A stretch of 64,000 nucleotides of DNA from Octopus vulgaris (lineage: Eukaryota). Both the position numbers and the translations under genes were made by a program. This document shows positions 7,148-61,382 of the stretch, one piece after another. The DNA lies in assembly GCA_951406725.2 (NCBI GenBank), contig OX597827.1, positions 83,080,001 to 83,144,000 of the forward strand. Direction: 5' to 3'. Each line of letters begins with the position of its first letter. The first letter of the stretch is position 1. Under the pieces are notes generated by a model. The model was not told the DNA's origin and ran no database searches. It worked only from the letters and a program-made list of their open reading frames with translations.

Positions 7148-7401
7148 AATTTGTTGCTGAAAATGCACCTGAATTTGAAAAACTTATAATTGTTTGTAAA
7201 TGAATTTATTTATCTACATACCAAACTAGTTTCAACAATTTTTTTGTATATCAGTGATATAAATCTTAATTTTTTAAAATTTCACACGTTTATACTATTG
7301 ATAAACAAAAAGTTGTTGAAACTAGTTTGGTATATATAAAAAAATTTATTTACAAACAATTACAAGTTTTGCAAATTCAGGTATATTTTCAACAACAAAT
7401 T
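7148..7401. repeat. Long inverted repeat (~115-bp arms) with a degenerate hammerhead in each arm
   Basis: Arms are reverse complements with scattered mismatches, between (TA)n at ~7088 and ~7406. Motifs ATACTA-TTGATAA-ACAA..TTGT-T-GAAAC-TA-GTT-TGGTAT (7292-7333, +) and ATATCA-CTGATAT-ACAA..TTGT-T-GAAAC-TA-GTT-TGGTAT (7218-7260, -). Confidence 0.85.
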
Positions 7402-7402
7402 T

Positions 7403-7438
<36 letters not shown>

Positions 7439-7697
7439 AATAGTGAGGGGTTATTAATCTGGACAAAATACTCGATAAGCTCTGCTCCCTGTCGGCACCC
7501 CAGGCTAACAATATTACTTAGATTAGTGAAGAACTCCAAGTGGTCTTTCGGTAGGGTCCAAACTTAGGGTTCATCACAATTCTCTATTGAAAATACGTGG
7601 ATGAGCTTCAAATAAACTGGTTTTTACAGAGAGATATATAAAGAGACAAGTAAAAATAGGGGTCATTACGCATAATTCCTTTATTATATAGCAAATC

Positions 7698-7785
7698 TGG
7701 CTTACAGCTGTTTCCAGTAGATAGGTTTATTCACTTGGGTAAATTGAAAGGCCTAAGAAAATTAATGATACCTTCGTCAGAGCCA
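7698..7785 (-). ncRNA. Minimal type-I hammerhead ribozyme motif (PLE-type), intact core
   Basis: TGGCT-CTGACGA-aGGTA...TACTg-GAAAC-AGCT-GTA-AGCCA: perfect 5-bp helix I, full core, palindromic helix III ACAGCTGT. Confidence 0.8.
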
Positions 7786-7857
7786 TTTTTGGAAATAACA
7801 AACAGAACACTTGAAGAATAGCTATTTTATGGAGGAAATGGGAGAAGATTGGGATGT

Positions 7858-8086
7858 TTAATCCTTTCGTAACCGACCTGGCTGAAACCAGCTCTGGCTC
7901 TGAGGACAAATGTCTTGCTTTCATAAGTTCTGAATTAAAATCTTCCACCAAACCCTAGTCACAATTTATGTTCCTAACACTAGCTGAATGATAACTAAAT
8001 TATTGTACTAAATTCTTTGTTATATTTACAAGTAATTGAAAGAAACACAAAGCATCTCAAAATAAATACAGTAACAAAAGGGTAAA
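7858..8086. mobile_element. piggyBac-like MITE
   Basis: Ends TTAA-TCCTTTCGTAAC ... GTAACAAAAGGG-TAAA, a degenerate TTAA-CCCTTT TIR signature. Confidence 0.5.
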
Positions 8087-8156
8087 GTAGAAAAAGGTAA
8101 AGGCAGTTTACAATGGGGTAGTAGCAATTGAGGGAGAGGTACATAGTAGAAGTATG

Positions 8157-8190
<34 letters not shown>

Positions 8191-8360
8191 ATAGGAATTT
8201 TATGGACAGTCACAAACATAGGTCAGCAACATTACCATATTGGCATTGTATGCAGGTCAGACATTCTCCAGCCAATCTGTTGAAATTTGATATGGGGTGT
8301 CTAAGAGTGATTTTCAGTTTTTATTCTAGCATTGTGGGAGAATAATTTTAGAGGATTATT

Positions 8361-8395
<35 letters not shown>

Positions 8396-9156
8396 CTGTA
8401 GACATATGTGTATGCGTGCATGCATATATATTGTTGCTATTATGCAAAAGTGTCATAAATCCAAAACGTTTCTGTATCAGAAAACAAAAAAATAGTTTCA
8501 CCATTCCGTAGCAAAACCATTGTACTCCATTTTGACAATTTTTGATATCACATTTAAAGCAGCTGGAGATATGGTAGTTTGACCAAAAGAACTGGCTATT
8601 GCAAGCAAAAATAAATATTGAAAAACTGCATTTCCCCAAATTTGGACATATGACAGTTTCACATAATAGTAATGAGACACACGCACACATATATCTCATC
8701 ATCTTCTTCGTTTAACATTCATGTTCCAAGCTGGTATGGGTAGGGTGGTTTCACAGTAACCAATGCGTCCCAAGATGGCATCACGCTCTGTTATCTGCTT
8801 TGGCATGGTTTCCATATGGCTGGATGTTTTTCCTAACATCAGCTACTTTATAAAGAAGCAAACTCTTCTTTATAAACATGTTTTGCAATGCTGCAGTTTC
8901 TGTCTACCAAATTCAGTCACAAATTTTTGTTTCAAGATCCCTATCTCTTCAATCAAAATTCACAATCTACGTACCTGTTATTCATAGTTATCTTTTATTC
9001 TATCTGAAGTTCAATATTTCATGTTATCCTAAAGAACATCTTTAAAAGTACAAGTTAAATTTATTTAGGGCCCATATTTTCATGATCTTCAGTTCTTTAT
9101 TTAAGAGATGAGGAATTATGTACATTATTTACATTCAATGTCTTCATCTTGTTTGT

Positions 9157-9205
9157 TGTTAACATGTTTCGGCTGATATACCCTCCAGCCTTCTTCAGGT
9201 ATCCT
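9157..9205 (-). ncRNA. Hammerhead motif in the PLE 3' region (helix I damaged)
   Basis: CTGAAGA-aGGCTG-gagggtatat-CAGCC-GAAAC-AT-GTT: core and helix II intact, helix I not complementary. Confidence 0.65.
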
Positions 9206-9252
9206 GGGTTCTCATTCCTAAGGTATTTTTTGATGTTATTATTTATTATTGT

Positions 9253-9322
9253 CACTGCCGGGAATCGAACTTGGAATCTTGGGGTTAGTAGCCTGCACTC
9301 TTAACCACTACGCCATATGCTC
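9253..9322 (-). other. tRNA-like Pol III cassette (A and B boxes) inside the PLE tail
   Basis: A box TGGCGTAGTGG (9315-9305) and B box GTTCGATTCC (9270-9261). No clean acceptor stem, so not called a tRNA gene. Confidence 0.7.
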
Positions 9323-10439
9323 GTGGGCAATTATGGAGTGAATTTTAGCGCTTATAAATCTAATATTCTCCTATCCTTCCTTGATACCGTTTCCCATATG
9401 CTATTCATATCTGCACTCGGTCTGCTTAAGAGGTAGATGTGTCCTAGCATATGTGCTGCCTCTTTTAGTTTTCGTATTTTCCAGTAGTGCTCTCTGTCGA
9501 TTATTTTAACTTCATCCCTCAGGGGGAGGTGATTTCCAACCATCCAACCCATGCTAGCATGGAAAACGGATGTTAAATGATGATGATGATCATCATCAGC
9601 TATACCCGATTTATCAATATCTCCTCATGTCACAGCTTTGCGATGTTCGTCTACCCCTATTTTGAGGGGGCAGCATGTTCCGCCTTTGTATAAACTACCA
9701 CAGCTGCATGGGATGGAGTACATGCAGTTCTTAATCATATTCTCTTCTGTTGGTGGTTTTACTCGAAGGAGATATTTGCAAAGTGTTGTATTACTCTTGA
9801 ATACTGTCCTGATGTCATATGGGCCACATATCTTTTGTATCTTTTCAGAGAGGCCTTTCACATAGGGTAGACAGACTGTGGACAGTTTATTGGCCTCATC
9901 CTCTCTCTTCTTCATAATTGGAGTGGATAATATACTTTTGGGGTAGTTGTATAGATTCAGGAGATCCGTATACCGCAAGCCGACCCTTACTGGACAATAC
10001 CTCAACTTCAATTCCCACCATCCATACAGTGTAAATACAGGGATTGCTCAGTGCCTAAAACATTGTGCAAAGAATATAAGTAGCGATTATGATACACACC
10101 ACGAAGAAATGATCAAACTCAATAACAATCTGTTAAGCAATAACCATGCCAAAACAGATATGGAGCCTGGTCAGCTCGTGTCAAACCATCCAACCCATGC
10201 CAGCAAGGAAAACGGATGGTAACTCATAATGATATTATGTACGTGTGTGTGTGTGTGTATGGATGAATAGATGTATGTATGTATCTTTTAAATTTGTTTA
10301 CAGGAAATATTTGAAATATGCAAATCAAGCTCCTATTCCATTATGCCGGTCACAGTCTAATGATGCTGACTGGTGAACCAGCCAGCATCATTATATATGT
10401 ATGCATGCGCGCGCGTGTGTGTGTGTGTATATATATATA

Positions 10440-10905
10440 ATTCCAAAAATTTGGAGTCAACAAGAAGAAGTAAAGTTGGACATTTATTTTCAATTACTAC
10501 ATTTGTTTTGATAAACTTAGTGGCTACTACTAACTCTAGGCCATGACAGATAGAGAGGATGCTCTGGAAGCCAAGAATTTGAACTTATGGAGACAATATT
10601 TACATACTGCCTGAGGAAACACAACTAGATCTCATAATGCAGGGAAACAGGTGCATAATCAAGTATCTATAAGCCTGGAGAACTGCGTTGCAGAGAAACA
10701 ATTGTAGTGATTGCAAATAAATGTCCGACACTACTCCTTTTTGTTGACTCCAACTTTTTCAACTCTCTATTCACACATGACAGGAGCCCAAAAGCAAACC
10801 TGGAAACATGTATAATACTACCACTGTGTATGATAGCACAGGGTAAATCTGAGGGTGGACGAGCTTTATACTGTACTCTACTAAGTTCTTAACATAATAT
10901 GCCAC

Positions 10906-10907
<2 letters not shown>
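10440..10907 (+). mobile_element. PLE-tail-like element between (TA)n tracts, with ~60-bp inverted repeat and hammerhead
   Basis: 10451-10509 is an imperfect reverse complement of 10695-10753. Motif GC-CTGGAGA-aCTGC-gtt-GCAGa-GAAAC-AATT-GTA-GT at 10673-10708 has one core substitution. Confidence 0.7.
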
Positions 10908-10936
<29 letters not shown>

Positions 10937-11095
10937 GGTTATGAGAGGTACTAGTAGTGTCAAGAAGACCCAAAGGTGTCAGGTAATGCTGAGTAAGTGC
11001 TATGGACAGACTATAGTTAAGCTCCAGGGTCGGTGATTATGTGAATGAGGAGTCCAGCGTAGGTAATATATACCAGCATGCGTGTATGTAAAAAA

Positions 11096-11388
11096 TTAAC
11101 AGAATGAAATAAAAATCCAAGGCTGTGAAAGATTTCAGAACATTTATAAAGAGAAGGTCTTACAGCTGTTTGTGGGATATTTTATATATCCCTTCATCGG
11201 AGATGGTGTGGTTCTCTCACTTCACTCTCTATTTCACATCTTCTCTAGAATAACTATTGCTTAACCATTTTCTCACACCATCTCCGATGAAGGGATATAT
11301 AAAATATCCTGGAAACAGCCGTAAGACCTTCTCTTTATAAATGTTCTGAAATCTTTCACAGCCTTGGATTTTTATCTCATTCTCTTAA
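11096..11388. repeat. Inverted repeat (115-bp arms, 63-bp spacer) with hammerhead motifs
   Basis: Arms 11096-11210 and 11274-11388 are nearly perfect. Plus arm: TCT-CCGATGA-aGGGATAT-ataaa-ATATCCTg-GAAAC-AGCC-GTA-AGA (11281-11326). Minus arm has CAAAC-AGCT-GTA. Confidence 0.9.
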
Positions 11389-11427
11389 TGTTATAAATAT
11401 ATATTCATAAAAGAAGGAAAAAAATCT

Positions 11428-11510
11428 TAAATAGATTTTCTTTTATTGTCAGCACAATACATGTAAAAAATATACATATATTGCGCTGCCGGTAGAAGAA
11501 AATCTATTTA
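11428..11510. repeat. 83-nt imperfect hairpin
   Basis: TAAATAGATTTTCTT...CATGTA pairs with TACATAT...AAGAAAATCTATTTA. Confidence 0.8.
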
Positions 11511-11957
11511 TAATTTCATCTTGAAATTAGCTAATTCACAATTAATGTGGAGACTTTTTAAATATCTTCTCATTAGCCCACTTTCAATCACATTTATTTA
11601 TGGCATTTTTCGGTACCTTCATAATGTTTGTACATTAAATAAGTATGGAGGAGACAAGTCTTGTTTCAGCTTTCTCCCTTAAAATAAATAATGTTATATA
11701 TATATATATATATATATATACATGTTGTACATGGGGTAAAGGTGCTTGAAAGTTGTGGCTTTTTTGGTATGTTTGTTCCCAAACAGCACTTCTTTTAGTA
11801 CTGTCCACACTGACGGAATGGTACTGCCCAAGTCTCGAAACCATAATAATATCTGTGGGGCAGCTGATGATGGACCTATGTTGGATTGTTGGTATGGCTG
11901 TTTTTGTATATATGTAGAATAGAGTTATACAACATCCTTTTGATATATATGTGTATG

Positions 11958-12025
<68 letters not shown>

Positions 12026-12028
<3 letters not shown>

Positions 12029-12188
12029 CATAAATCCTTGAGTATAATCCGCATTTTTCCCCCAAAATTTAAAGGTTAAAATCCCTAGTGCGTACTATAT
12101 ACGAGGTTAAAAATGAAAAATATTTTCTAAGCAATGTCCGAGTCTCTATTTGCACTCCGGCAATGTTTATTCAGACGCATTTTGTGAT
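12026..12188 (+). mobile_element. DNA transposon end (pogo/Tc1-like TIR), truncated
   Basis: TA-CCATAAATCCTTGAGTATAATCCGCA start right after a (TG)n tract; no partner TIR found. Confidence 0.45.
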
Positions 12189-12189
12189 G

Positions 12190-12762
12190 TCAAGTGTGGA
12201 AACAAGGATCAGAATCGAAGGGCCTTAGAGTCAACCTAGCTAAAACCAAAGTCCTATTAAGTAGGAAGGCAGGCAAACCACATATCCCTTCAGGTAGATG
12301 GCCCTGCTCAATCTGTAGAAAACCTAGCTTCCACACCCGAAATTTCTTTTCTAATTCTGGTAGTGATTCTGCTATGAGGGCCAGGTCATCAGAAAAGAGG
12401 AGCTCCCAGGGGCAACCTGTCTTGAATTCCCCTGTTATTACCTGGAGGACTATTATGAATAAAAGGGGACTGATCGGATTGGAGCCTGGTGCAGCCATCT
12501 GGTTCCCCAGTCCTCAGTCAAATCGTCCAACCCATGCTAGCATTTATCATAGTCCTCCAGGCAATAATGGAGGAATTCAAGACTGAATACCCCTGGGAGC
12601 TCCTCTATGCTGACAACCTTGCTCTAATTGCTAAGTCACTATCAGAACTAGAGGAGAAGTTTCAAGTGTGGAAACAAGGATCAGAATCGAAGGGCCTTAG
12701 AGTCAACCTAACTAAAACCAAAGTCCTCATAAGTAGGAAGGCAGGTAAACCACATATCCCTT
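12190..12762. mobile_element. Rearranged RTE reverse-transcriptase fragments (+/-/+)
   Basis: PWELLYADNLALIA...GLRVNLTKTKVL on plus (the GLRVNL part is duplicated at 12190-12322) and SPLLFIIVL...PWELLFSDDLAL on minus (12325-12475). Confidence 0.85.
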
Positions 12763-13479
12763 CACTTGTAATGTGTTTTTCTCTCCCCAAATCTCATGCT
12801 TGTGATGGCTATCTTGAGTTACTAGCGGATGAATCTAGTTTTTGTTTTGAAGTAGTGGCTATTCAGCAGTTCTTAAACATGTTGCACCTCTTGGATTCTT
12901 TACCTGTTATAGAATCCAAGGAATTGTTAGTTAAGGAAATGAAGACATGTGTGTAAGCTGGATATCCAAGTGCTTTTCTGAGGTTCTAAAGCTGAGGGCT
13001 GTACATCTGTGTGCATTGCATTTGTCCTATATGCAAAGTGAAAGTATTTTTAATTTAGAGGGAACATAGAGATTTGTTGTGGTGTTAGTCTGTTGTAGGT
13101 GATATTTTCCAACTGGGTAGAATAAATTTGTTTCCAAGGAAACATCTGGTAAATAAGTGCTCTCAAATTTAGATATGGTGTTCTTTCTGCCATAAAAAAA
13201 AAAAGCTGTGTTTCTTGAATCTGGTCAAGTATGGCATTGAGCTTCCCAAAATCCTCCGCCTGATGCTGCCAGACATAGTTTGCTAACATCATAGTGTTCG
13301 TTAGTGTGTCTAATTGATAACTTACTATAAAATCTTTCCTTGGCTTCACCGTCACACATACCAATCTACTTTTTGTCATTTACTGTTTGGTTTGGCACGT
13401 TTAGGGGACGGGACTCCTTTATATATTACAAGCTCAATGTTGCGTGCCTGATCTGATTGTGCATATCTGAGGGTGGTCA

Positions 13480-14160
13480 CTATTGAGGGAAGGAGTATGG
13501 GAGGAGGAAAGGAAAGGGATTAGTGTGATTGGTTAATGAGAAAAGAAGGGACAACATTGTAAGGGTGATGAAGGTTGAGTAGACTGGGTGCAGGTCTATC
13601 TCACATTATTGCGGGGGAGGGAATATAAATGGAAGGCCGGGGAGGGGGGGAACAGTATGAAAGAGAAAAACAACAGATGAGGATGGCAAAGGACCATAGA
13701 AAGTCCTTGAAAGAGGAGTGTCATGAATGGGTAGGTGGAAAGAGAGAGATAAGAGGGTGTTGAGGTGGCAGAGAAATGTAGGTAGAGAAAGGGAGTAATG
13801 GCTGGCAGTGGATGAGTGAGAGAACATCACTAGTGCTAAGATGAGACATGATTGATGTGAGTGAGGAAATGGATAGAGGAAGGGACGGTAGGCAGAGGCA
13901 GAGCGATGAAGGGGAAGGGGCAATAGAATCTCTAATACAAAGGTTGAGTGAAGGATGGTAGAGTAGAATGATTGGGTGGTATACAGGGTGGCCAGTCACA
14001 GTGTGGTGGGGGACATAAGTGAGAGAGGGGTATGAGTGAGAGAGAGATGAGATGATTGAAGTGAATAAGACAATGGATGAAAGAGGGGAAAATGATTAAA
14101 AGGTAGATAAGAAGTGGAGGTTTGGGGGGTGCAAAGGGTAGCAGGAAATATAAGCTTGGC
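13480..14160 (+). repeat. Purine-rich (GA) low-complexity block
   Basis: Strong G/A strand bias. Similar blocks at 43830-44460 and 46480-46740; pyrimidine-strand versions at ~6000-6230 and 28780-29130. Confidence 0.7.
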
Positions 14161-16187
14161 AGGATATAAATATATACACACTTGCATGCATAAACATGCA
14201 TTTGTGTAAATATACACTCTCTCTCTATCTCACACACACACACACACACATACACATACAAGATGGGCTTCCTTCAAATTCTATCAAGCAAATTTACTCA
14301 GAAGGTTCAGGTCAGTTCAGACACCTCTGGACATGCCTTGGGCAGCTCTTATTAACTGTTTGTCTACCCCTAGCTTCTAGGGAACCTGTTGAGGTCCTTT
14401 TCCAGGTTGAAAAATGCCAAGTACAACAGTTAGCTTTTGGTTAAATACTTCTCCTGCATTTGTCTTATTCAAAAGAGAGCATCAGTCGTACTTTCCCAAA
14501 CTGCATCTCATCTAACCTAATTCTCTTCCAAGTTAGTTGAGCTATAACTCTTTCTCTAATTTTCATGACCCAGAAATATATCATCATCATCAATAGCATT
14601 ATTTTGTTTGTTTTCCAACTTGGCCTAAGTTGGATGGGTTATCATGACCCAAGTCCTCTCTCAAAGTGCTCAAACATGTCATTTGGCTTCGTTCCTATGG
14701 TCTGATGCCCTTCCTGCTGTCACCAACCACTTCAGATGAGGACACTCAGTGCACAGAAGTAGCAGAAACGTGTCTGTTTACATTACAAGTCTCTACATTC
14801 TTATATATCCCAACAACCAAATACTGAACTAGCTTTCATTCTTGCAAAATCAACTCAGAATACCAGTAATATACTGGTATCAGTTCTATTCACTCTAGTA
14901 ACCACCATCTCAAATGTCAACATAAAAACTCATCAATATCATCATATTGTCAATTCTTGGTTATTTTTACAAGATTTCCAAAGTTCACATATTTTCTTCT
15001 AGTATTTACAAATTATATTTTCATAAAGAAACAACCTAAACTCTCTCCCCCCACCCACAGATATGTGAGAGAATATATCTTTCAATATGTATGTTTAACA
15101 CACACACACACCTGCACAAACATATATACATCACAGTATTAAACTTGTTACTGTTAGCAATCATATATGGTAATCATTATTGATAACCTGTGTCTGTGAT
15201 GTCAACAGTGTAATATTTGCAGTAAACAACAGAGTACAACACACACACACACACGTGTGTGTGTGTGCGTGTGTTGTACTTTCTACAACAAAGTAAATAC
15301 CACCCCAAGTATGAGAAACTTACTTTTTGGGTTTGTCATCGGCCTATGGAGGACTAGCAGCATGTATAAAAGAATAAATATAAATGTAAATAAAAATATA
15401 AAACTGAAGGAAACATCTCTGAAAATCAAATTTGCCAATATTTCTACAACCCTTTTGCTTTCTTTCAGTTCCAACAATTTTACACCAGGTGTTCCATCTA
15501 AACGACCCTAACAACAACAGCAGCCACCATGGTCCCTCACAAACATCCAACTTGTGTATAAAATAGATAAAGTTGAGGCCAGAAGCAAAAGGGGAAGGGA
15601 AAACAGTAGGGTTAGGATAATGATCTCTTGCCTATAAATGAAGAGTGTTCTTTGAGATGTCAATATTAAAAGCCATCTCCTATGACACTCCTTGATCTTG
15701 TCCTAGTACCATGTCTACATAACCTTCCTCACACAACACAGCCACCAGACTAACTCAAATATGACAGTTACTTTCATCAAATCTAACTGGCTTCCTGCAA
15801 AATACAACATAATTAGTTTTCACTAAATCTCAAGAAAAATGTCTAGAGAAATTTTGTTCTGTTTATGATACAGAAGAAAACTTTAAATAACAAACTGTCC
15901 ATGAGATGACACTGGAGGAGATGACAGAGGGCTGAGATTGCTGTGCTCAACTAGACCTGCCCACCACAACAAAATTGAGATCCTAAAACCAAGGTGCTAC
16001 ATAAAAAGTATTGGTGTGTGGGCTGGGGCCATGTGAAAAGCACCCAGTACACTCAGTAGAGAGACTAGGATGAGGAAGGGCATCCAGCCAAAACAGGCAG
16101 TGGAATGTGGCCTTGCCAGTTCCTGTCAAGCCATCCAACCCATGCCAGTATTGAAAATGGATGTTAAATGGTGATGATGTTGCTGTC

Positions 16188-16630
16188 CCATGTCACACTA
16201 ACATTCTACTATCGTATGTCATTGTAACATATCACTGTACCATGACAATGTAACACAGTACAGTCCCATGTTGTAGTAACACAGTGTTTCATGTCAAGGT
16301 AACCTAGTACTGTCTCATTTCATTGTAACACACTACTGTGTCATGTGGAGACACATGGCTTAGTGGTTAGGGTGTTGGACTCCTGATTGTAAGCTTGTTG
16401 TTTCGTGGACTGGGCGATGCACTGTGTCCTTGAGCAGAACACTTCATTTCACGTTGCTCCAGTCCACTCAGCTGGCAAAAATGAGAAATCCTGCAATGGA
16501 CCAGTGTCCCCCATCCAGTTGGAGAATTCATACACCATGGAAACCAGGAAACTGACACTTGTGAGTCAGCATGAGTCAAGAAGTTTACCTTTACTATTGT
16601 GTCATGTGATGGTAACACAGTACTATCGCT
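16188..16630 (+). repeat. Degenerate ~26-bp minisatellite interrupted by a tRNA-SINE
   Basis: About 7 units of ATGTCATTGTAACACAGTACTGTCYC-like sequence; the array resumes after the SINE at ~16593. Confidence 0.75.
16348..16592 (+). mobile_element. tRNA-derived SINE with target-site duplication
   Basis: A box TGGCTTAGTGG and core GTGTCCTTGAGCAGAACACTT, flanked by ACTACTGTGTCATGTG / ACTATTGTGTCATGTG. Confidence 0.8.
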
Positions 16631-19458: not shown

Positions 19459-19496
<38 letters not shown>

Positions 19497-19532
19497 GAAA
19501 CCAGTGAAATAAAGGTGACTATAAATACTAAC

Positions 19533-21268: not shown

Positions 21269-21315
<47 letters not shown>

Positions 21316-24076: not shown

Positions 24077-25319
24077 CAGGGGGTGGACAAAATAATGGAA
24101 ACAATTTTGAAATATCTATAAAACTGACAAAAGCTTGTTTATTTTTGTTTTATTAATAGTGTTGTTTAATATGTTTTGCTAAAATTGTGGTTTCTTTTGA
24201 GATATCATCAGAAAAAGGTAATTAAAATTCATTAAAATCACAGATCTATCAGACTTTCAAAGAGGTGAAATTGTTGGGCTTGCATGGCAGGTGCTAGTGT
24301 AATGAAAACAACTGAAATGTTTGGTGCATCCAGAAGTACTGTCTCGAAAGTAATGAGTCTTTGAGAAAGAGGAAAAAACTTCCTCGTCGAAACAAAGCTC
24401 CGGAAGAAAACCAAACCTTTCAGATTTCAGATAGGGACCATCGGACTCTTACACAAATTGTTAAAGAGAATCACAAAAGAACAGCTCCCAAAATTACTGC
24501 AGAGCTTAATGACCACCCCGAGAACCTAGTTTCCACAAAACCTGTTCACTGCGAGCTGCACAAAGCCGGATTTCATGGGAGGGCTGCAATCAGAAAACCA
24601 CTACTTTAAAAAACAAACGTTGCAAAGCGTTTAGAGTGGAGTAAAAAAAAAACCTACAGAATTGCAGTGGAAGAATGTTATTTTTTCGGACGAGTCATCC
24701 CTTACCTTATTTCCAACCACTGACCGAGTATACATGTGGAGACAGCCAAAAGAGGTATTTGACCCAGAATGCTTTCTTCCAACTGTTAAACATGGAGGAG
24801 GATCTGTGATGATTTGGAAGGCTATATCTTGGAAATCCACCAGCCCAATGGTTTCCCTTCATGGCAGAATTAATAGTCAAGACTATTTAAGCATTTCATC
24901 TGATCCAATTCATCCTATGGTAGCGGAACTGTTTCCAGGGGGAAACGCAATCTTTCAGGATGATAATGCACCAATTCACACAGCTAAAGTTGTTACTGAA
25001 TGGCATGAAGAACATTCTAGTGAAGTTGAACATCTTATCTGGCCCCCACAGTCCCCAGATCTCAACATTATTGAACATTTATGGTGCATTTTAAAAAAAC
25101 AAGTAAGGAGTCGATATCCTCCATCATCCTCACTACAAGAACTGGAGACTGTTTTAGCTGAAGAATGGACAAGAATTCCTTTGGAAACAATTCAAACTTT
25201 GTATGAGTCCATACCTCGTAGGATTCAAGCTGTAATTACTGCCAAAGGTGTTCCGATCCCATATCAAAATAAATTTGTTCAAAATGTTAAGGTGTTTGCA
25301 TTATTTTGTCCAACCCCTG
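24077..25319 (+). mobile_element. Full-length Tc1-like transposon (DD36E), frameshifted transposase
   Basis: TIRs CAGGGGGTGGACAAAATAATG / CATTATTTTGTCCAACCCCTG; FSDES, QDDNAPIHT, WPPQSPDLNIIE; split over ORFs 24361-24609 and 24662-25441. Confidence 0.95.
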
Positions 25320-27871: not shown

Positions 27872-27877
27872 TACATA

Positions 27878-28001
27878 CAGTAGTACCTCGGTTTACGAAT
27901 GCCTCTGATCACACGAATAAGTCAGGCTTTATATATATATATATAAAAATAAAGCATGATTTATTCGTGATCAGAGGCATTCGTAAACCGAGGTACTACT
28001 G
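27878..28001. mobile_element. 124-bp MITE (pogo/Tigger-like) with perfect 35-bp TIRs and TA TSD
   Basis: TA-CAGTAGTACCTCGGTTTACGAATGCCTCTGATCAC ... exact reverse complement-TA, with a (TA)n centre. Confidence 0.92.
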
Positions 28002-31000
28002 TACACACACACAATACAAATACATTTTCATTAAAACTAAAGCAGAATTTAAGTGAATTGCTTGAAAACACAACACCAGTGTAGTGAATGGCAAGGTTGG
28101 TCTGTAATATCTGTGGCTATGTAAGTTGATCAAGAGTTGGGCTCATTAGTTATGAGCAAAACTACAAGTGTCAAGTGTCATTTTGTCTGAGTGCCCAATG
28201 GTCTTAATGGTCAGTGATGGTCTTCTTCAATCACAAGTGGACAGCCATCATATATATCTAAATATGCATATATCTATATATTTGTGTATTTGCATGCATA
28301 TGTGTGCAGGAAAGATGCATGCTGTGTTCCACATAGATTTTCATAATCCAGTTTGCATTCTGTAGTGTTGTTAAGTAATTACTATACTGAGTGGTGTTAC
28401 TAGTCATGAAATACAGAGGAAATGTAGGAGAAATTAACTCTTTTTTGCATTATGTTACAAAGAACTAATGACATTGGTTCCCTGTAACTTAAGGCAAGAA
28501 AGTGTTCCCTGATAATCTGCTCTATTTAAGAAGCCAAATGCACTTCAAACAGATGATGCAAGGTTCCAAGCAACTCAGAATGGTGAAACATACATAGGAA
28601 CTAATAAAATAAACTTGTGCTTACCTTCATTTCTCATCCACACACACACGTATATGTATTTCTATCTCATCTTCCTAACCCCTGTCCCTTCATTACTCTT
28701 CTAACTACAGCACTTCTGCAGCTGCTTTAATTACAATAATTATATGAGAGCAAGGATGCACACATTTCATCTTCAACAGTTTTGTGCCATCAGTTTCCCC
28801 CCTCCTTCGATCCACCTCCTCATGTCATCCCATGCCACTACTGAACTCCATCTCATATCAGCATTAACAATCCTCTCTCTCTCTCTCTCTCTCTCTCAGT
28901 ATTCACTCCTACATACCTCTGATCTATACCCTTGTCATTGAGCACCCCTCCCTCTCCCCCTAAACTGATATTCACCACTGACCACCATGCTCCCTCTCCC
29001 ATTCACTGCATCACATATATTCCTTTATTCCCTACAGCTAACAATCTCATGCAAATTTACTCAACCCTCTATATTTGTAACCCTCACATCCTCTCCTTTT
29101 CCAGCTGGCATAGCCATGTAACTCCTCCACAGTAAGACATCTGTTCCTATTCCTGTAGCAGACTCTTGCCTCCCAACACCTGGGGTCTTGTGAGTTACTT
29201 GGCAACCTCACTGGTGTTGGTGATACAAAAAAGCACTAAGTACACACTGCGGGTATCCAGCCTTAGAAACCACAGCAAAATAAACACTGGAATCTGACAC
29301 AACTCTCTCTCTCTCTCTCTATCTACACTGACCACACCTCTACCCTTGTCCATCACTCACTGCAATCACCTCTATCCCTATCATTAACCATTTGTCTTTC
29401 TCTTTTCATTCTTGCAAACATATTCAGCCACCTGTCCTCAATCCCCTCTCCCTGTTCTCCCATTTATCTGCCCTCTTGGAACTTGAGAGTACACTTTGTC
29501 CTGCTGGGATAGGTATGTCTCTCTTTTACAGCAACACTCCTCTCTCTGCCCAACTACCATCACCTGGCTCAAAGCCCCTCCCTCAATACTGCAGCACCCA
29601 TCCAGGCTTTGGCACGTCACTAGTGCTGGTGCTGTGAAAAATAAACACCTGGAACACTTTGCAAAGTGGTTGACATTAGAAATGGTATCAGGCCAAAAAC
29701 AGGCGTTGCAGCTCAACACAGCCGTTTGACTCTTATGATCCTGTCTCACCATCTGACTCATGGCAGCATGTAAGTCACACATTAAACGATCTTGATGACA
29801 GTTATGACGATGATGTCAATAAAGTTTGGTAGTTTGTGAGCTGATTCCTAGTAAGATGCATGTTTTAACAAAGGCTGGTGGTTAGCAAGTTCAGTTTATG
29901 GAAAGGAAGTAGGAGAGAACCAAGATTGTGTCAAGGTTATTAAGGATTTCTGTAAGCGACAGCTTCCAAAGCACAAAGGTACAATTATGTAGAATAGAGC
30001 TGGAAGTCAACAATAATAAAACAATGGCTTTTGGTGGAGGCATTCTAATGAGATGGGGGAAGAAAACAAAATAGAAAATGGTATCAAAAACATTACTTGA
30101 TATATACAATGCAGTAGACCAAGGAAGGCTTCAGAAGAGCTCAGATCACATCTTAAAGGTAATAGACAATCAAGATACACAAACAGACAGTGTGTGCGAG
30201 ACAAGTTCAACCAATGTCAAAATGATGATAACAATAACAATTATAAAGGTGATGGTATTGGTGGTGATGATGATGACCGTTTTCTATGAGAAATTCAATG
30301 ACCATTTGAGAGTGATGATTCAGTCATCTAACCAATATCTAACACCTAAGTAAAGAAAAAGCATTTAAAAGCTGTAAATGATGGCTATAGTATTGATTAG
30401 TAGGTGTGATTTCCCAAGAACAATGTTGATTTAGTACCACAGATTAATACTGTGTGGTAGATGTTAGTTTTGAAAAGGTGTTTGAAGATACTAGTAAACT
30501 CAGTGAAAAGTCTATTTTAATTTCAATTGGATCCAACAGTAAGGTGAAGAGGGAAAGAGAAAGACAATAAAATCAAAGGGCGATCCTCCAGTAATGACAC
30601 TGACACAAGGTTGTTAACATACTATATGGAAAGACATATTGGGCAAATAATGTTGTAAGTACAATTAAATGTGAAGGTTTTGTGAAGGATTATTTAGAGA
30701 TCAAAATGGCCCAAACAATTAGAAAACCTTTATAACTTTGCAAATAATTTAAATAATTCAATCCAAATAAATTTGATAAAATAAAAGTTTAAACAACATG
30801 AAATGTAAAACATTAATAAAATGACAATAACCCAGTGCTGTGTGTGTGTGAGTGCGCGCGCATGCATGAAAGAGAAAGCGCTAAGAAGGTATTCCAGATT
30901 TAGTAGTGCCTAGAAATATGGTTGCTGTTTGTGGTGTCGGTAATGGTGATATGGAATGAAGTTGATACAGCGGATTTTGATAAACTGAAATGCCAGAATC

Positions 31001-41624: not shown

Positions 41625-41627
<3 letters not shown>

Positions 41628-41838
41628 TAAATTAGAAAAAAAAACCCCACCTTTTATCAATTCAATAATGAAAAATTAAATTATACCATCTAGAAAATTA
41701 CATATTATAGAATGATTAAATAATCTTATATGTTTTATCTTATATTTAATCTTTCTATAAAATGTAATTTTCTAGATGGTATATTTTAATTTTTCATTAC
41801 TGAATTGATAAAAGGTGGGGCTTTTTTCTAATTCATAT
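41625..41838. repeat. AT-rich inverted repeat (~97-bp arms, ~20-bp spacer) abutting (TA)n
   Basis: CCCCACCTTTTATCAATTCA...TACCATCTAGAAAATTACAT is mirrored by ATGTAATTTTCTAGATGGTA...TGAATTGATAAAAGGTGGGG. Confidence 0.9.
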
Positions 41839-47835: not shown

Positions 47836-47884
<49 letters not shown>

Positions 47885-53800: not shown

Positions 53801-53999
53801 TAATTTGAGAGTGATTTAGCTGCTATTTCCCAACTGGCTCAAAGTGTATTATAGTAGTAACAGAAATGCAGCTGTGTTTGTGGTATGCTGCAGGGGGGGT
53901 GGGGGTGTTCTCATGTACCTCTGTCCACATAAACTGAAACGGATTTTCTCTTGTCCCCCTGGTAATTCAAATATCCCCAACCTGATGCCTCTACACTTA

Positions 54000-55640
54000 T
54001 TCGTCTGGCTGAACTTGTTCTCTCCCTCAACTGCTTCTCATTGGTGGGGGATTTTTACCAACAGGTCATGGGAATGAGAATGGGCCCCAACGATGTGAAC
54101 CTGTTCGCTGGCTACATTGAGACCCAAATATTCTCATGATTCACTGGTCCCACACTCCTGAGCTATAATGGTTGTTATATTGATGACTGTATTGGTGCGA
54201 CCTCACTCTCTCGTGAACAACTACACTCCTTCCTCTCTTTTGTCCAAACCTTCCATCCTGCCCTCGAATTCTGCACTATTTCTAACACTTTCATCGGATT
54301 TCTCGACATTTCTGTCAACGTCCACCACTCTGCTCTCACTACCTCCATCCACAACAAACATACCCCGACTCACACTCCTACCTTAACTTCTCCTTCTCCC
54401 ACCCTACCCACACCCCCCTGTCTGTGCAGGAGCTGCAGTGACAACCATGACTCTGAGACTCAGTCTCAACTCATGGCTCACCACTTCATCATTCATGGAT
54501 ATACCCTCACCACTTGGTAGAACACGTTCCGTGGACCATGCTTCTGCTCTCTCTCTCTCTCTCCTTACACCCACTCTGCCATTGCCTGTCTCCCGGTTTT
54601 CCTCACATACCACCCCTCCAACGCACCATTCTCCAAGCCTTCTAGCGACTCCACTCCAACCCCTGCACCTCACACATCTTCCCCAACCTACCCCTTCCCT
54701 CCTTCAAACAAGCCCACAACATGCATGACCTCCTGGTCCACAGTTTCTTCACTTGGCTCGTTCCCTTGCTCCTGCCCACGCTGCCACACTCGACCCTACC
54801 TCTCCAACACCACCATCCACACAGGCACCCATCATCGTCCCTATCATATCACCAACTCCTTTACCTGCACTTCTAGCAACATCATTTACTGCATTTTCAG
54901 CTCTTTCTGCCCTTCTCTGTACATTGATCAAACAGGACCACTTGGCTGACTGGTTCACACAGCACCTCCAAGACATCAGACTCAGCAATGGTCTCGTGCC
55001 ATTTCCACTCTACCGGTCATTCACTACAACACTTGTCTGTGTTCAAATTGTCTTTGCTGTGAACAGGAATTAATCTTCTCTCTTCGCTCCATTGTGCCAC
55101 ATGGGCTCAACTTCTCCCCTCTCTTCACTCCTACCTACCTTCTCTCTTGATACCATCACCCCCTCTACCCACACACTGCCACTACTCCCGACACCCTGTC
55201 CACACAACCCCACTCCCACCACTCCACGCACATCAGCACTGACCACTTCTCAGCACCCACACCACACACCATCATCCACACACCAACACATTACAAACAC
55301 ACTAATCAAAGTCACTAGCCCCTATCCACATATGCACACATTCTCACATATAAACGCATGTGCACATTCATTTTGGGATCACCAATACTTTATTATCTCC
55401 CATTCTTTCAACCTCTCCTGTCAAATCTTTTTTTCCAACCAGTCACCATACTTAACTGCTAAATCCACAAGTTCTTTTATTCTCTCTCTGTTTATTTTCT
55501 ATTATTCCTTTCTGTTGAAGAGCATAGGCTCAAAATGTAGAAGACTTTCTCACTTTCCCGAGCGTCAAACTATTACACCTGCTTGTTGGTCCTACACCTG
55601 TTTTCGTCTTTTGCTATTCTGTAAATTTCAACGAAATATA
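54000..55640 (+). mobile_element. Penelope-like retroelement (Neptune-like), degraded
   Basis: RT remnants GMRMGP, YIDDCIG, FHPALEF, FLDI, HSYLNF; Cys-rich linker CSCPRC and FTCTSSNIIYCI...LYIDQTG (GIY-YIG). Degenerate hammerhead CTTT-CTGTTGA-aGAGC-atag-GCTC-AAAAT-GTA-GAAG at 55508-55543. Confidence 0.85.
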
Positions 55641-55652
55641 TATATATATACG

Positions 55653-55706
<54 letters not shown>

Positions 55707-55712
55707 TACGTA

Positions 55713-56975
55713 AACGAGTTGGACAAAATAATGGAAGCACCTAGCATCATTGCATCATAATTTTGAAATATCTATAAAACCATCAAAAGCTTGTTTATTT
55801 TTATGTTTTTTGATTTATTATTAGTGTTGCTTAATATGTTTTGCTAAAATGGCTGTTTCTTTTCAGATATCATCAGAAAAAGGTAATTAAAATTCATTAA
55901 AATGACAGATCTATCGGACTTTCACAGAGGTCAAATTGTTGGTGCTTGTATGGTAGGCACTAGCGTAATGAAAACAGCCGAAATGTTTGGTGTATCAAGA
56001 AGTACTGTCTCGAAAGTAATGACAGCCTTTGAGAAAGAGGGAAAAACCTCCTCGTCGAAACAAAACTCGAGAAGGAAACCAAAACTTTCAGATAGGGACC
56101 GTCGGACTCTTATGCAAATTGTAAGAAAGGATCATAAATGTACAGCTCCCAAAATTATTGCAGAGCTTAATGACTACCTCGAGAACCCAGTTTCTACAAA
56201 AAATTCACCGGGAGCTGCACAAAGCCGGATTTCATGGGCTACAATCAGAAAACAACTACTTTCAGAAACAAACGTTGCAAAGCATTTAGAGTGGAGTAAA
56301 AACCTACAGAATTGGTCCCTAAAGCAGTGGAAGAATGTTATTTTCTCAGACGAGTCATCCTTTACCTTATTTCCGACCACCAGCCAAGTATATGTGTGGA
56401 AACAGCCAAAAGAATTTGACCCAGACTGCCTTCTTCCGATTGTTAAACATGGAGGAGGATCTGTGATGATCTGGAGGGCTATATCTTGGAAATCCACCAA
56501 CCCAATGGTTTCCCTTCATGGCAGAATTAATAGTCAAGACTATTTAAGCATTTCATCTGATCAAATTCATTGTATGGTTGCAGAACTGTTTCCAGGGGGA
56601 AACGCAATCTTTCAGGATGATAATGCACCAATTCACACAGCTAAAGTTGTTACTGAATGGCATGAAGAACATTCTAGTGAAGTTGAACATTTTATCTGGC
56701 CACCACAGTCCCCAGATCTCGATATTATTGAACATTTACGGTGCATTTTAGAAAAACAAATAGGGAGTTGATATCTTCCACCATCATCACTACAAGAACT
56801 GGAGACTGTTTTAGCTGAAGAATGGACAAGAATTCCTTTGGAAACAATTCAAACTTAGTATGAGTCCATACCTCGTGGAATTAAAGCTGTAATTACTGCC
56901 AAAGGCTGTCCTACCCCATATTAAAATAAATTTGTTTCAAATTTAAGGTGTTTTTATTATTTTGTCCAACCCCTG
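55713..56975 (+). mobile_element. Second full-length copy of the DD36E Tc1-like transposon
   Basis: Same TIRs (right end TTATTTTGTCCAACCCCTG-TA). 289-aa ORF 55902-56771 with HTH and DDE motifs, compensating frameshifts and a premature stop. Confidence 0.95.
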
Positions 56976-57094
56976 TATGTATGTATGTATGTATGTATGT
57001 ATGTGTATATATATATATATATATATATACATGATGATGATGATGATATATAGATATATTAAAGATATATATATATATATCCTTTCATGCTTTT

Positions 57095-57400
57095 ATTCTT
57101 TTAAGTGATTTAGCTTTTAACGCTGCAGTCATACTGGAGCACCACCACTGGCTGTGCTACACTATTATTTCAAACCTCCTCTGATACATGGCATTTCATG
57201 AATAAGGGAGTCCGATGCTGCTGCCCCAATCTATGTTTCCTGCTTATGAGCTTTATCGGAGGAGATCCAGTTTTGTTCTGAAGACACCTACATCAATACC
57301 ATGCAGGTGTCTCATGTATTTTGGAAGGATATTGAAGAGCTGTGGGCCCTTGAAACCCAAGCTGTTGCAGTATCTGGTCCTGTATTTTGTGTCTGTGCAT
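57095..57400 (-). mobile_element. CR1/L2-like LINE 3' fragment
   Basis: Minus RTRYCNSLGFKGPQLFNILP...VFRTKLD plus the shared tail. Confidence 0.8.
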
Positions 57401-57403
57401 TAC

Positions 57404-57438
<35 letters not shown>

Positions 57439-57475
57439 CAGAGACAGACAGACAGATAGATAGATATACACATAC

Positions 57476-57669
57476 TAATAGGAGGGGGCTAAGGACTGAA
57501 CCTTGGTGGACCCCTACCTCTACCCGGAATTCTTCACTGTACTCATTGCCAACCCTCACCTTACTGACAGCGTCTCTATACATGGCTTGCACAGTTCTCA
57601 CTAACCATTCATCTATCCCTAGTTTCCACATTGATCACCAGATAAGGGATCGGGGGACCCTGTCAAAGG

Positions 57670-57670
<1 letters not shown>
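57476..57670 (-). mobile_element. RTE reverse-transcriptase fragment
   Basis: AFDRVPRSLIW...LGIDEWLVR...VGVHQGSVLSPLL. Confidence 0.9.
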
Positions 57671-57716
<46 letters not shown>

Positions 57717-57865
57717 CATTTTACTGGAGATTCTTTTCCTCTGTCTTCCTTTTCTCTTGGAATTTCCTTCCGTGAGTGTCTTCTAATACTTTGTATGTAC
57801 CACGTCATCACTTTGTTGATTTTTTCTTGTTCTGTTTGTACTTCATTTTTTGGTGGGTGGGGATT

Positions 57866-57911
<46 letters not shown>

Positions 57912-58004
57912 GTATGTATGTATGTATAATTGTTAAACAGGACAGTAAACATTATGACAAGGCAAACATCTCAAGTCATATACAATATTATTAATAAATT
58001 CAAA

Positions 58005-58060
58005 ATCTTACAGCTGTTTCTGGGATATCCTTGAATATGGGATATTCCGTCATCAGAGAC
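58005..58060 (-). ncRNA. Minimal type-I hammerhead ribozyme motif, intact core
   Basis: GTCT-CTGATGA-cGGAATATCC-loop-GGATATCCCa-GAAAC-AGCT-GTA-AGAT. Confidence 0.8.
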
Positions 58061-58355
58061 AAATAAGGAAAAAAAATAGGGAAAATGGGAATGGTATATA
58101 TTAATAAGATGACGACATAGAAGAAGTGAGTAAAAGAATAAGGAGATGGAAAGAAAGACGAAGAAAGAAGCATAGAAGTTCATAGTTCAACTTTCCAAAG
58201 TTATAGAAACCAGAGCATGAGTCCTTAGGTGCAATCCTGCATAAGATCCATGTGGGTTAAAATCCTGATATAGAAGACATCCCAAGACAAAAGATGCAAA
58301 CATATCAACGTTCAATAACACACACACATCTATATATTTATATGTGTGCATGTGT

Positions 58356-58382
<27 letters not shown>

Positions 58383-58388
<6 letters not shown>

Positions 58389-58538
58389 TTTATAGAAGGA
58401 GCTTCTACAGGACTAGAACTGTTTCATTCAAAAGAAATCATCAGGAAGCTAGGTGACAAGCTTGTCACCTAGCTTCCTGATGATTTCTTTTGAATGAAAC
58501 AGTTCTAGTCCTGTAGAAGCTCCTTCTATAAAATAAAT
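58383..58538. repeat. Perfect 156-bp palindrome (no spacer) centred on ACAAG|CTTGT
   Basis: Base-by-base symmetry about 58460/58461; (TA)n abuts the left end. Confidence 0.97.
58471..58521 (+). ncRNA. Type-I hammerhead ribozyme (identical copy on minus strand at 58400-58450)
   Basis: AGCTTC-CTGATGA-tTTC-tttt-GAAt-GAAAC-AG-ttctagtc-CT-GTA^GAAGCT: 6-bp helix I, full core, 4-bp helix III; predicted cleavage after 58515. Confidence 0.85.
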
Positions 58539-58713
58539 TAATTTACTCTGCTATGTATTGAGTACCTTATTTTCTGTGGTTAACCCCGACTCAACCTGGG
58601 ACATATATATATATTAAATATACCTATAACAGTGTAAACTTGCTAGGCCACTTTATTATTCTCATCATTATTATTTATAATGGTAATGATACCTATTTAA
58701 CTTTAAATTGTAA

Positions 58714-58759
<46 letters not shown>

Positions 58760-58761
<2 letters not shown>

Positions 58762-58990
58762 CAGCATGGTTTTCGATCAGGTAGGAGCTGCTTGACCCAG
58801 GTCCTACAGCACTATGACTGGGTGTTGAGGCAGTTACTCAACAACTCAAATGTGGACGTAATATACCTTGAGTTTGCAAAAGCTTTTGATAAAGTGGATC
58901 ATGGTATGATATGCCACAAACTGTGTGATCTCGGCATAGCTGGAAAAATTGGTGAGTGGTTACATGACTTTCTGAAAGATAGAAGCTAGG
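58760..58990 (+). mobile_element. CR1/L2-like RT fragment
   Basis: QHGFRSGRSCLTQ...VDVIYLEFAKAFDKVDHG. Confidence 0.88.
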
Positions 58991-58999
58991 GCAGTGGAA

Positions 59000-60900
59000 A
59001 ATATAAAAAGAAACACTAAAACCTTCTACAAGTTCACAAAAGAGTCTGCCTCAGTGCGATACAGGATAGGGCCACTGTTTGATGAAAAGGGCTCATTGAC
59101 TGCAGACCCCAAGAGAATAAATGAAGCAATTTAATAAACAATTCCAAAGTGTTTTCACCTCCCCACCAGAAAACATGAAAATAAGCAGACCTGATGAGTT
59201 CTTCAACACCTCCAACCTATAAGAGAGAAGATGGCAACCCTCAATTACATTGACATTACAGAAGAGGATGTATTGTCAGCCATTGATGAGATAAACCCAA
59301 ACTCTGCAACAGGCCCCGATGGACTCCCAGCAATTTTGTTAAAAACATGCAAGAAAGCTCAGAAAGCTCTTGTAAAACCACTGCAAATACCTTTCCAGAG
59401 TTCCCTTGAGTGTGGTACATTTCCTCAAACGTTAAAAGAAGGAATAATCTGCCCTGTCCACAAAGAAGGAAGCAAAGCAGTAGCTATAAACTACAGCCCT
59501 ATCTCTCTGACCTCACATGTCAGCAAGATCATGGAACGCATTGTCAGAAAAAGCCTGACCATCTTCCTAGAGGAAAATGGCTTGCTTACAGACATGCAAC
59601 ATGGTTTCCGTCCTGGAGGGAGCTGCCTAATACACCTACTACAGCACTTCGACTAGGTACTAAAACAACAGCTCTGCCATTCAAATGTAGATCTGATGTA
59701 TCTCGACTTTGCCAAGGCGTTTGACAAAGTTGATCATGGGATGATATGTCGCGACTTGCAGGACTTCAGTATCACTGGTAGACTGGGAAAGTGACTGCAT
59801 GATTTCCTAAGGGGTAGAAGTCAGGCTGTCACAGCAAATGGTGCTCTCTCTCTCAAGTGAAACCAATCCTCAGTGAAGTCCCCCAGGTAACTGTGCTGGG
59901 TTCACTACTGTTTGTGATTGCTCTCTCGGACATGCCCTCACCCATAAAGTCAGCCACACTCACCAGCTACGCTGATGATACAAAAGTATCGCAGTCAATC
60001 AAGGATCCTACTGACATCCGAAGACTGCAGAATGACATGAACGCAATATATAAATGGGCTGATAAGAATAATATGCAGTTCAATGGCACAAAATTTCAAG
60101 CACTCTGCTGTCAGCCCACAAACATACTTCATCTAAAGTACACAGATCCAGCAGGCAATGTAATCCCAGAGTTAGAGTTGGTGCATGACCTGGGAATTCA
60201 CATTAGTAACGACACAACTTTCCATGTGCACATTGCTCAGATGGCAACACTATGCAGGTGGGTGGCAGGTTGGATCCTTAGTTCCTTCAGGACCAGGAAC
60301 AGAGACACAATGCTTCTGCTTTTGAGAACCTTTGTCCTCATTCGTCTGGACTACTGCTCTCAATTGTGGTCCTTACACAGTGTAAAACTTATTGTGGAAC
60401 TAGAAGTGATCCAAAGCCACTTCACAAAGTTGGCTACTGGGAGAGATTGAGGGAACTAGGACTCTACTCCATGAAGAGGAAATGTGAGAGATATACAGTG
60501 CTATACATGTGGAAAATAATCAAGGGTCTGGCTCCAAATTTAAGAATTGAAATCTACAACAATCCCTGAACTGGATAGCACTGCACAGTACCAAAGGTCC
60601 CATCTTCTCCATCGAGGATACAAACCCAATATAGTAATAGCTTGCAATTCAAAGGACCACAAGTTTTTAATGCCCTGCCACAGAACATCAGGGATCTGCA
60701 AGGTGTAGACATGGAAGTCTTCAAAAAACATCTAGACAGTTTTCTACCTGCAATTCCAGATGAACCCACATTGTAGTGGGAGGCACATAGAAGAGCAGCA
60801 ACATCCATCTCGCTATTTCACCTGAAGCAATACTGGAAAAATACCTGAATACAGTAAAGGTAGTGCACCAGCATGGCCTCAACTTCTGGCCGAAACCCAT
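59000..60900 (+). mobile_element. CR1/L2-like LINE ORF2 (RT to 3' end), pseudogenised
   Basis: SATGPDG, NYSPISLTS, QHGFR, YLDFAKAFDKV, VPQVTVLG, YADDTK, LDYCSQLW; several stops. Confidence 0.92.
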
Positions 60901-60943
60901 AAGATATATGTGTGTGTGTGTGTGTATACATATATATGTATGT

Positions 60944-61382
60944 ATAAAATATATACATACAATATTAGATATGTACATATATGCATAAGAGTACTACAAG
61001 AGTACCTATACCACCAGTGATAGAAGTCAAAAAATACTTCTGTACCACCGAATAGTCACAAATCCATTACAGACAAGACAGGAAAAAATATCAGTGAACA
61101 ATAATAATGTCTTACCTCAAATGGGTCATAACAAGTAAATGCCTGGGTGGCACTAAATTTTGAAACCGGTGCCAAGTTGACCAGCATTTACTTGTTATGA
61201 CCCATTTGAGGTGAGACATTATTATTGTTCACTGATATTTTTTCCTGTCTTGTCTGTAATGGATTTGTGACTATTCGGTGGTACAGAAGTATTTTTTGAC
61301 TTCTATCACTGGTGGTATAGGTACTCTTGTACTACTCTTATGCATATATGTACATATCTAATATTGTATGTATATATTTTAT
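60944..61382. repeat. Near-perfect inverted repeat: 199-bp arms, 41-bp spacer
   Basis: Arms 60944-61142 and 61184-61382 with 2 mismatches by my reading. Spacer holds a GGCAC/GTGCC stem and GAAACCGGT; microsatellites on both sides. Confidence 0.95.

Follow-up and report, generated by a model that had tools for sequence, protein, structure and literature searches.

Eight short non-coding loci in a 64,000-nt stretch of Octopus vulgaris DNA (GenBank assembly GCA_951406725.2, contig OX597827.1, positions 83,080,001 to 83,144,000 of the forward strand; this whole stretch is hereafter the window, and positions are counted from its first nucleotide) are probably 5′-truncated 3′ ends of Penelope-like elements (PLEs), that is, pieces of their pseudo-long terminal repeats (pLTRs), most of them inverted at insertion. 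Several PLE families are likely to be involved, the fold-back having been made anew at each insertion, and the loci are probably a known kind of PLE debris, not a new mobile element; the families themselves seem to be unnamed. The preliminary description of the window had proposed either truncated or inverted PLE tails or a class of non-autonomous palindromic ribozyme retroelements. The first proposal is supported by coverage that falls toward the 5′ end, by junctions that differ between copies and by one family found in fold-back as well as single-arm form.

The loci were labeled A (7148-7401), B (7433-7790), C (10440-10907), D (10936-11388), H (41625-41838), E (57925-58060), F (58383-58538) and G (60944-61382). 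Fold-backs were called by self-blastn with microsatellites masked and by an inverted-repeat search of the window, and the resulting features are given below; where no strand is stated, none was assigned.

7088-7107: (TA)10 tract to the left of A (self-blastn)
7108-7147, minus strand: one-sided 40-nt extension of A, a putative PLE tail
7148-7401: A, a decayed fold-back, arms 83% identical across the entire self-match (masked self-blastn)
7298-7327, plus strand: hammerhead-like motif of A, with a 7-bp stem I and a palindromic stem III (descriptors)
7406-7433: (TA)14 common to the 3′ ends of A and B (self-blastn)
7434-7790, minus strand: B, a single arm, with a hammerhead at 7780-7703 whose stem II region is long; (TA)n lies 270 nt farther on
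10445-10759: C, a fold-back with 64-nt arms (10445-10508 and 10696-10759, 86% identical) and a marginal hammerhead at 10675-10706 on the plus strand
10760-10908, plus strand: one-sided 150-nt extension of C, up to (TA)14 at 10909-10936
10937-11084, minus strand: one-sided 149-nt extension of D, up to the same (TA)14 at 10909-10936
11085-11399: D, a fold-back with 126-nt arms (11085-11210 and 11274-11399, 93% identical), a 63-nt spacer and a hammerhead-like motif at 11284-11323 on the plus strand
41625-41838: H, a fold-back with arms 87% identical, without a hammerhead, adjoining (TA)13
57925-58320, minus strand: E, a single arm of a high-copy family, whose 3′ end meets a (TA)n/(TATG)n run, with a hammerhead at 58056-58009
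58384-58537: F, a perfect 154-nt palindrome (arms 100% identical, spacer absent), with one Hydra-type hammerhead per arm, at 58444-58406 on the minus and 58477-58515 on the plus strand
58538-58602, plus strand: F tail of 65 nt, on one side only, a member of the family, followed by (TA)n (contig comparison)
60944-61382: G, a fold-back with 199-nt arms, 99% identical, and a 41-nt spacer, without a hammerhead core
61383-61448, plus strand: putative tail of G, an extension on one side only, followed by (TTTA)n(TA)n

The shared fold-back architecture described previously was found in six of the eight loci (A, C, D, F, G and H). B and E, for which neither masked self-blastn nor the repeat search gave an inverted arm, are single arms, and E stretches to about 58320, past its originally noted end. 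Direct repeats were absent from each of loci A-H by masked self-blastn. A separate 95-nt inverted repeat (78%, self-blastn) lies immediately after D, at 11422-11516.

Tracts of (TA)5 or longer lay within 10 nt of an outer end in four of the nine strongest local inverted repeats (A, C, F and H), against an expectation of 1.2% per locus (binomial P = 3e-6), and within 300 nt downstream of five of the six hammerhead matches, against a background of 14%, the two F matches being non-independent. D and G adjoin imperfect TA runs only. A and B face one (TA)14, and C and D face another. Between the arm and a second TA run, five fold-backs carry an extension on one side only, which measures about 40 nt in A, 150 nt in C, 149 nt in D, 65 nt in F and about 66-80 nt in G.

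Other copies of families E and F were compared using public contigs aligned to positions 57906-58716 at 80% likeness, from runs X2, X7, X13 and X1, representing three organisms; X1 is guessed to be an RNA run and the other three are DNA-type. Both families are multi-copy. Summed contig depth, which does not translate into a copy number (depths of 32-73 were listed for individual X2 contigs), reached about 1.1-1.2e5 over the 3′ end and hammerhead of E in X2 and X7, dropped to 2.3-3.4e4 upstream and to 3.7-7.1e3 farther up in the same runs, and cover extended to 58325. The outer arms of F summed to 1.5-1.7e6 (X2, X7), with an outer-to-inner arm depth ratio of 5.0 in X2, 4.7 in X7 and 8.4 in X13. 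Cover of E and F therefore decreases several-fold toward the 5′ end in the three DNA-type runs. Read as a rough scale and not as a copy number, the summed depths correspond to thousands of E arms and some ten thousand F arms. An excess of A>G differences in the contigs was not read as editing, because it occurs in DNA-type runs as well.

The depth of the F tail was 400-730 times that of the flank, and behind position 58614, 22 contigs from X7 continued into (AT)n; the 65 nt are therefore the tail of the F family, and (TA)n is its target family-wide. Contigs crossing the center of F numbered three among the 15 joints listed of 101 and three among the 12 further rows listed of 53. The six F junctions that they contain are all distinct, none equals the F junction of the window, and they are offset by 5-73 nt, with depths of 21-115, near single-locus depth. 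When these junctions were mirrored onto the element, the hammerhead core fell in both arms in none of the six and in neither arm in three. The same 15 joints included two opposite-strand joints of E (depth 43-108) and no head-to-tail tandem joint, so that the locus-specific inverted junctions among the rows listed comprise six of F and two strand switches of E. In a few contigs the element also continues linearly past the center of F: loose ends at 58460/58461, from one to three contigs each in X7, X13 and X1, carry non-palindromic upstream letters.

Alignment of the locus sequences with one another placed D and E in one family. The right arm and spacer of D aligned with E at a z score of 12.7 (versus 60 shuffles), and the spacer matched E upstream of its hammerhead; the window thus holds a fold-back and a single arm of one family, and the D spacer is upstream element sequence. 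Besides arm-to-arm pairs, only D/E and, marginally, A/B (z 3.6) exceeded z 3.5 among 66 pairs.

Hammerheads were searched with Rfam and with three descriptors. A type-I hammerhead was predicted by descriptor near the 3′ end of A, B, D, E and F; it was marginal in C, where a match requires that a mismatch in the core and a 2-bp stem I be tolerated, and no core was found in G or H by the scored descriptor. Earlier claims of type-I hammerheads thus hold for five loci and are weakened for C, and the absence of a clear ribozyme from G and H was confirmed. A stricter first descriptor gave no match in the window. The second, in which one unpaired base was permitted on either side of the stem II foot, gave three to four matches (A, F twice and, if a long stem II is permitted, B), against 0.07-0.10 per shuffle in 30 block-dinucleotide shuffles. 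The scored descriptor gave six matches in the entire window (A, B, the right arm of D, E and F twice), against a mean of 0.2 and a maximum of 2 in 40 shuffles. Both later descriptors were relaxed after the loci had been seen, which inflates this excess. Rfam gave no hammerhead or twister among 110 matches at E-value ≤10 in the whole window, its matches being microsatellite-driven miRNA models; the F arm alone gave only a truncated Hammerhead_3 match (E-value 1.1), and G gave no ribozyme.

The predicted ribozymes differ in form. F has T-T at the foot of stem II, a short stem II and a 3-bp stem III. D has U4 changed to C in the core of both arms, and the core of A reads as a U3-A8 variant in a single arm, where it could equally be a decayed core. 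In all ribozyme-bearing fold-backs the 3′ side of the ribozyme points outward to (TA)n. The entire F transcript is predicted to fold as a single hairpin of -131 kcal/mol versus -7.3 kcal/mol for the hammerhead fold, so that the palindrome would be poor as a ribozyme-bearing working RNA.

Several further hammerhead-like stretches and searches were recorded. In the G spacer, positions 61150-61185 contain GAAA, then a palindromic CCGG and a 5-bp stem, an arrangement that resembles the 3′ half of a hammerhead; the core is missing, and the cleavage position is occupied by G. At 18657-18610 on the minus strand the sequence after a CTGAAGA core is similar to stem II of the Hydra-1_Obim ribozyme as published; this motif fails the hammerhead descriptors. 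The hammerhead form of B, D and E had no match in viral contigs and none in metagenome contigs, while that of F had 7 viral and 62 prokaryote matches, which were taken as chance, none having a PLE protein match or similarity to A-H. Dimeric PLE hammerheads have reportedly been described by Lunse et al.

It is very unlikely that the loci are fixed palindromic ribozyme retroelements moving as a unit, even as an F subfamily only. F is a perfect palindrome with two intact predicted hammerheads, and recurrence of its exact junction is unreadable from collapsed contigs. All six other F junctions are distinct, however, linear continuation occurs past the center, cover near the center is 5-8 fold lower than in the outer arms, D and E represent two forms of a single family, and the hairpin is predicted to outcompete the ribozyme fold. 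The palindromic units of the preliminary description were accordingly not borne out by the other F junctions listed. A narrower version, in which F is a Hydra-type PLE derivative without an open reading frame (ORF), with about ten thousand arm copies, some of them re-mobilized as fixed two-hammerhead palindromes, is likewise improbable. If true, re-mobilized F would be the head-to-head counterpart of tandem retrozymes and would seed perfect double-stranded RNA hairpins genome-wide.

Another alternative overlaps with the reading of the loci as inverted PLE 3′ ends and differs in the parent only: E/D and F would descend from linear PLE derivatives, a few hundred bases long, that lack an ORF, are non-autonomous and are mobilized in trans, with the fold-back still made at insertion. 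This is possible, if doubtful. The summed depth is very high for such short pieces, no protein-like sequence was found in the 250 nt upstream of the E hammerhead, and both non-autonomous PLEs (MRC1) and PLE-derived retrozymes have been described (PMC8557442; bioRxiv 10.64898/2026.07.22.740005). Against it, the cover of E declines to 58325 with no fixed 5′ end or shared start, a point on which the contigs are weak, and a 225-bp stub of an autonomous Naiad element, described below, shows that ORF-bearing PLEs leave equally short pieces.

Inverted PLE 3′ ends of this kind would most likely arise as follows. A PLE ribonucleoprotein would nick both strands of the (TA)n target, and each nick would prime reverse transcription at one of two nearby start sites, leaving a tail on one end only. 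Both copies would abort after about 50-400 nt, and the truncated ends would be joined head-to-head to give a fold-back with a junction that varies by locus, while copying of one strand only would give a single arm, as in B, E and the Naiad stub. The ribozyme would be retained only where truncation falls upstream of the hammerhead, which, lying about 80-270 nt from the 3′ end, would be a passenger. Cleavage and extension of both strands, with two reverse transcription start sites that bound the tail, have been demonstrated in vitro, where hammerhead cleavage was dispensable for insertion (Frangieh et al., 2024; PMC11167929). It is unlikely that the same debris was inverted instead because one copy primed itself at a short palindrome. 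Such self-priming has been suggested for Penelope of rotifers, where inverted junctions contain palindromes (Arkhipova et al., 2013; PMC3846280), and the center of F has no spacer. On the other hand, C, D and G have spacers of 41-187 nt, the six other F junctions are offset, extension of both strands has been demonstrated in vitro, and self-priming alone does not explain a tail on one end.

Several points weigh against derivation of the loci from PLE 3′ ends. Six arm motifs had no exact match in the available sections of the Craig et al. supplement, and 12 translated sense pieces (the arms and the upstream part of E) gave no convincing start or end of a PLE protein; a PHG tripeptide that lies upstream of E was disregarded. 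No ORF-bearing parent was connected with any of the families A-H. The extensions of 65-150 nt exceed the published PLE tail of 30-40 bp, the ends of H are symmetric, and a hammerhead is absent from G and H. Divergence of the window copy from the majority also produces depth steps, and many loose ends lie at 58072 and 58240. Of the 101 joints, 86 are outside those listed, and collapsed contigs cannot show whether the junction of F itself recurs at other loci. The copy comparison covers E and F, and the reading of A, B, C, D, G and H draws on their anatomy.

The window also contains longer PLE remnants and a Naiad stub, which serve as controls within the same DNA: a stub at (TA)n, an ORF-bearing PLE that ends at (TA)7 and an inversion inside the ORF of another PLE.

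9161-9198, minus strand: hammerhead-like core in the 3′ region of the 9370-9966 PLE, with stem I unpaired, failing the descriptors
9370-9966, minus strand: C-terminal part of a decayed PLE ORF (P0001 residues 391-578, 62% identical)
9956-10111, plus strand: preceding ORF segment of the same PLE, inverted (P0001 residues 336-386, 71%)
11721-11945, plus strand: Naiad-type PLE 3′ end, 5′-truncated, 225 bp, between (TA)n tracts
53975-55635, plus strand: decayed ORF-bearing PLE whose end adjoins (TA)7 directly (58% to P0042 across the reverse transcriptase, RT)

Judging from consecutive ORF segments on opposite strands, 9370-10111 is an ORF-bearing PLE that was inverted at insertion. We take this element to be of Poseidon type and its strand switch to be like the twin-priming inversion of L1 work, and the element at 53975-55635 is presumably of Neptune type. 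By eye, the latter has a degenerate hammerhead-like motif at about 55512-55539. Rfam gave no hammerhead or twister in the 3′ region of the 9370-9966 PLE, and Pfam did not recognize any of five decayed PLE frames. The combination of PLE RT and GIY-YIG that would mark a parent was found only in these two neighbors, at 9370-10111 and 53975-55635. The PLEs at 9095-10143 and 54000-55640, which had been suggested as the mobilizing source, are thus real, but their 3′ ends formed no cross pair with the short loci at z 3.5 and they are therefore probably not the parents of A-H. A search of metagenomes with P0001 gave nine distant loci, none similar to A-H. Between the stop codon of the 9370-9966 PLE and its hammerhead-like motif lies a tRNA-like stretch at 9255-9325 on the minus strand (A box at 9315, B box at 9270), which received no ARAGORN or Rfam call, ARAGORN having found no tRNA genes; it could be an internal RNA polymerase III promoter in the pLTR or an inserted short interspersed element.

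In the Craig et al. supplement, the sequence printed immediately ahead of the Naiad_Ovul header, taken to be the end of Naiad_Obim, matches the Naiad stub by eye and has the same end letters. The size and position of the stub show that autonomous PLEs leave non-coding stubs of about 225 bp in (TA)n. Rfam found no ribozyme in it; GAAA precedes CTGATGA in this stub, as permuted half cores.

G and H could be Naiad-like stubs or could resemble miniature inverted-repeat transposable elements (MITEs). That they are MITE-like derivatives of DNA transposons, unrelated to the hammerhead loci, seems unlikely on balance. They have no hammerhead core, Rfam found no ribozyme in G, and Tc1/mariner elements and a probable MITE also lie at TA runs in the window. 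In the window copies, neither has the CAG...CTG ends of the probable MITE at 27876-28003; the ends of G are asymmetric, with a one-sided extension like that of F, and those of H are symmetric. Naiad PLEs also have no hammerhead and target (TA)n (PMC8557442).

Other elements in the window were recorded alongside. The probable MITE measures 128 nt and has TA on both sides and a central (TA)8. Two Tc1/mariner-type elements, at 24103-25317 and 55759-56973, are 88% identical and each lies beside TA runs, the second with DDE_3 and HTH matches. A fold-back of RT-coding fragments of long interspersed elements (72-78%) occupies 12323-12679, with RVT_1 at an E-value of 3e-5, and several decayed non-LTR RT fragments, 65-78% alike, lie between and after F and G, at 58760-60900 and 61885-63758.

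No published description of these families was found in the literature or by motif in the available sections of the Craig et al. supplement, a search that did not cover Repbase or Dfam. Given published PLE behavior, the architecture will not surprise specialists. The loci may serve as data on the formation of PLE inversions: with thousands of tiny two-ended insertions that carry a tail on one end, counting could separate two-strand priming from self-priming. If transcribed, the near-perfect hairpins of F and G would be double-stranded RNA, for which a link to cephalopod RNA editing is possible.

The hammerheads agree with published PLE ribozymes, which are minimal, with an unpaired base 5′ of stem II, a palindromic stem III and a U3-A8 variant, and which occur mostly as single dispersed motifs, with pairs on opposite strands separated by 100-700 bp (Cervera and de la Pena, 2014; PMC4209133). 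The same unpaired base, palindromic stem III and variant are seen here, whereas B, D and E carry an additional unpaired base on the 3′ side; the available sections of that survey name no cephalopod. Among PLEs, an inverted 5′-truncated copy, a one-sided tail of 30-40 bp and a bias toward (TA)n are documented, and how inverted copies form and microsatellites are selected is described there as open (Craig et al., 2021; PMC8557442). Curation of PLEs routinely records inverted pLTRs and 3′ extensions (PMC8969392).

Closest to F are the Hydra-clade endonuclease-containing (EN+) PLEs, including Hydra-1_Obim, which share with it a type-I hammerhead near the 3′ end, an unpaired stem II foot and a 3-bp stem III; the ribozyme table of this clade gives T-T at the stem II foot and a 3-bp stem III (PMC8557442 supplement). 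With the present loci in general they share the (TA)n target and the inverted 5′-truncated copy: (TA)n is the target in 26 of the 27 Hydra rows listed, one row being from Octopus bimaculoides and one having an inverted 5′-truncated copy (PMC8557442). Unlike Hydra-1_Obim, F has a different ribozyme sequence, a tail of 65 nt versus 30-40, and no linked ORF, so that it would resemble the Hydra clade in ribozyme form and target only. Octopus Naiad PLEs, like G and H, target (TA)n and lack a canonical hammerhead; by eye G and H do not match the displayed Naiad 3′ ends, and there were no exact motif matches.

Penelope and Poseidon have head-to-head inverted pLTRs with a tail on one of them (PMC3846280; PMC11167929), and the present loci show the same head-to-head ends, one-end tail and AT-rich target, with the difference that both copies here are too short for any ORF; the translated loci showed no evident reading frame that begins at the hammerhead. 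Animal non-LTR retrozymes are non-coding, PLE-derived and equipped with a type-I hammerhead, as most of the loci described here probably are. Retrozymes are head-to-tail tandems of a fixed monomer (PMC7229834; bioRxiv 10.64898/2026.07.22.740005), whereas the octopus loci vary in length and occur singly or head-to-head.

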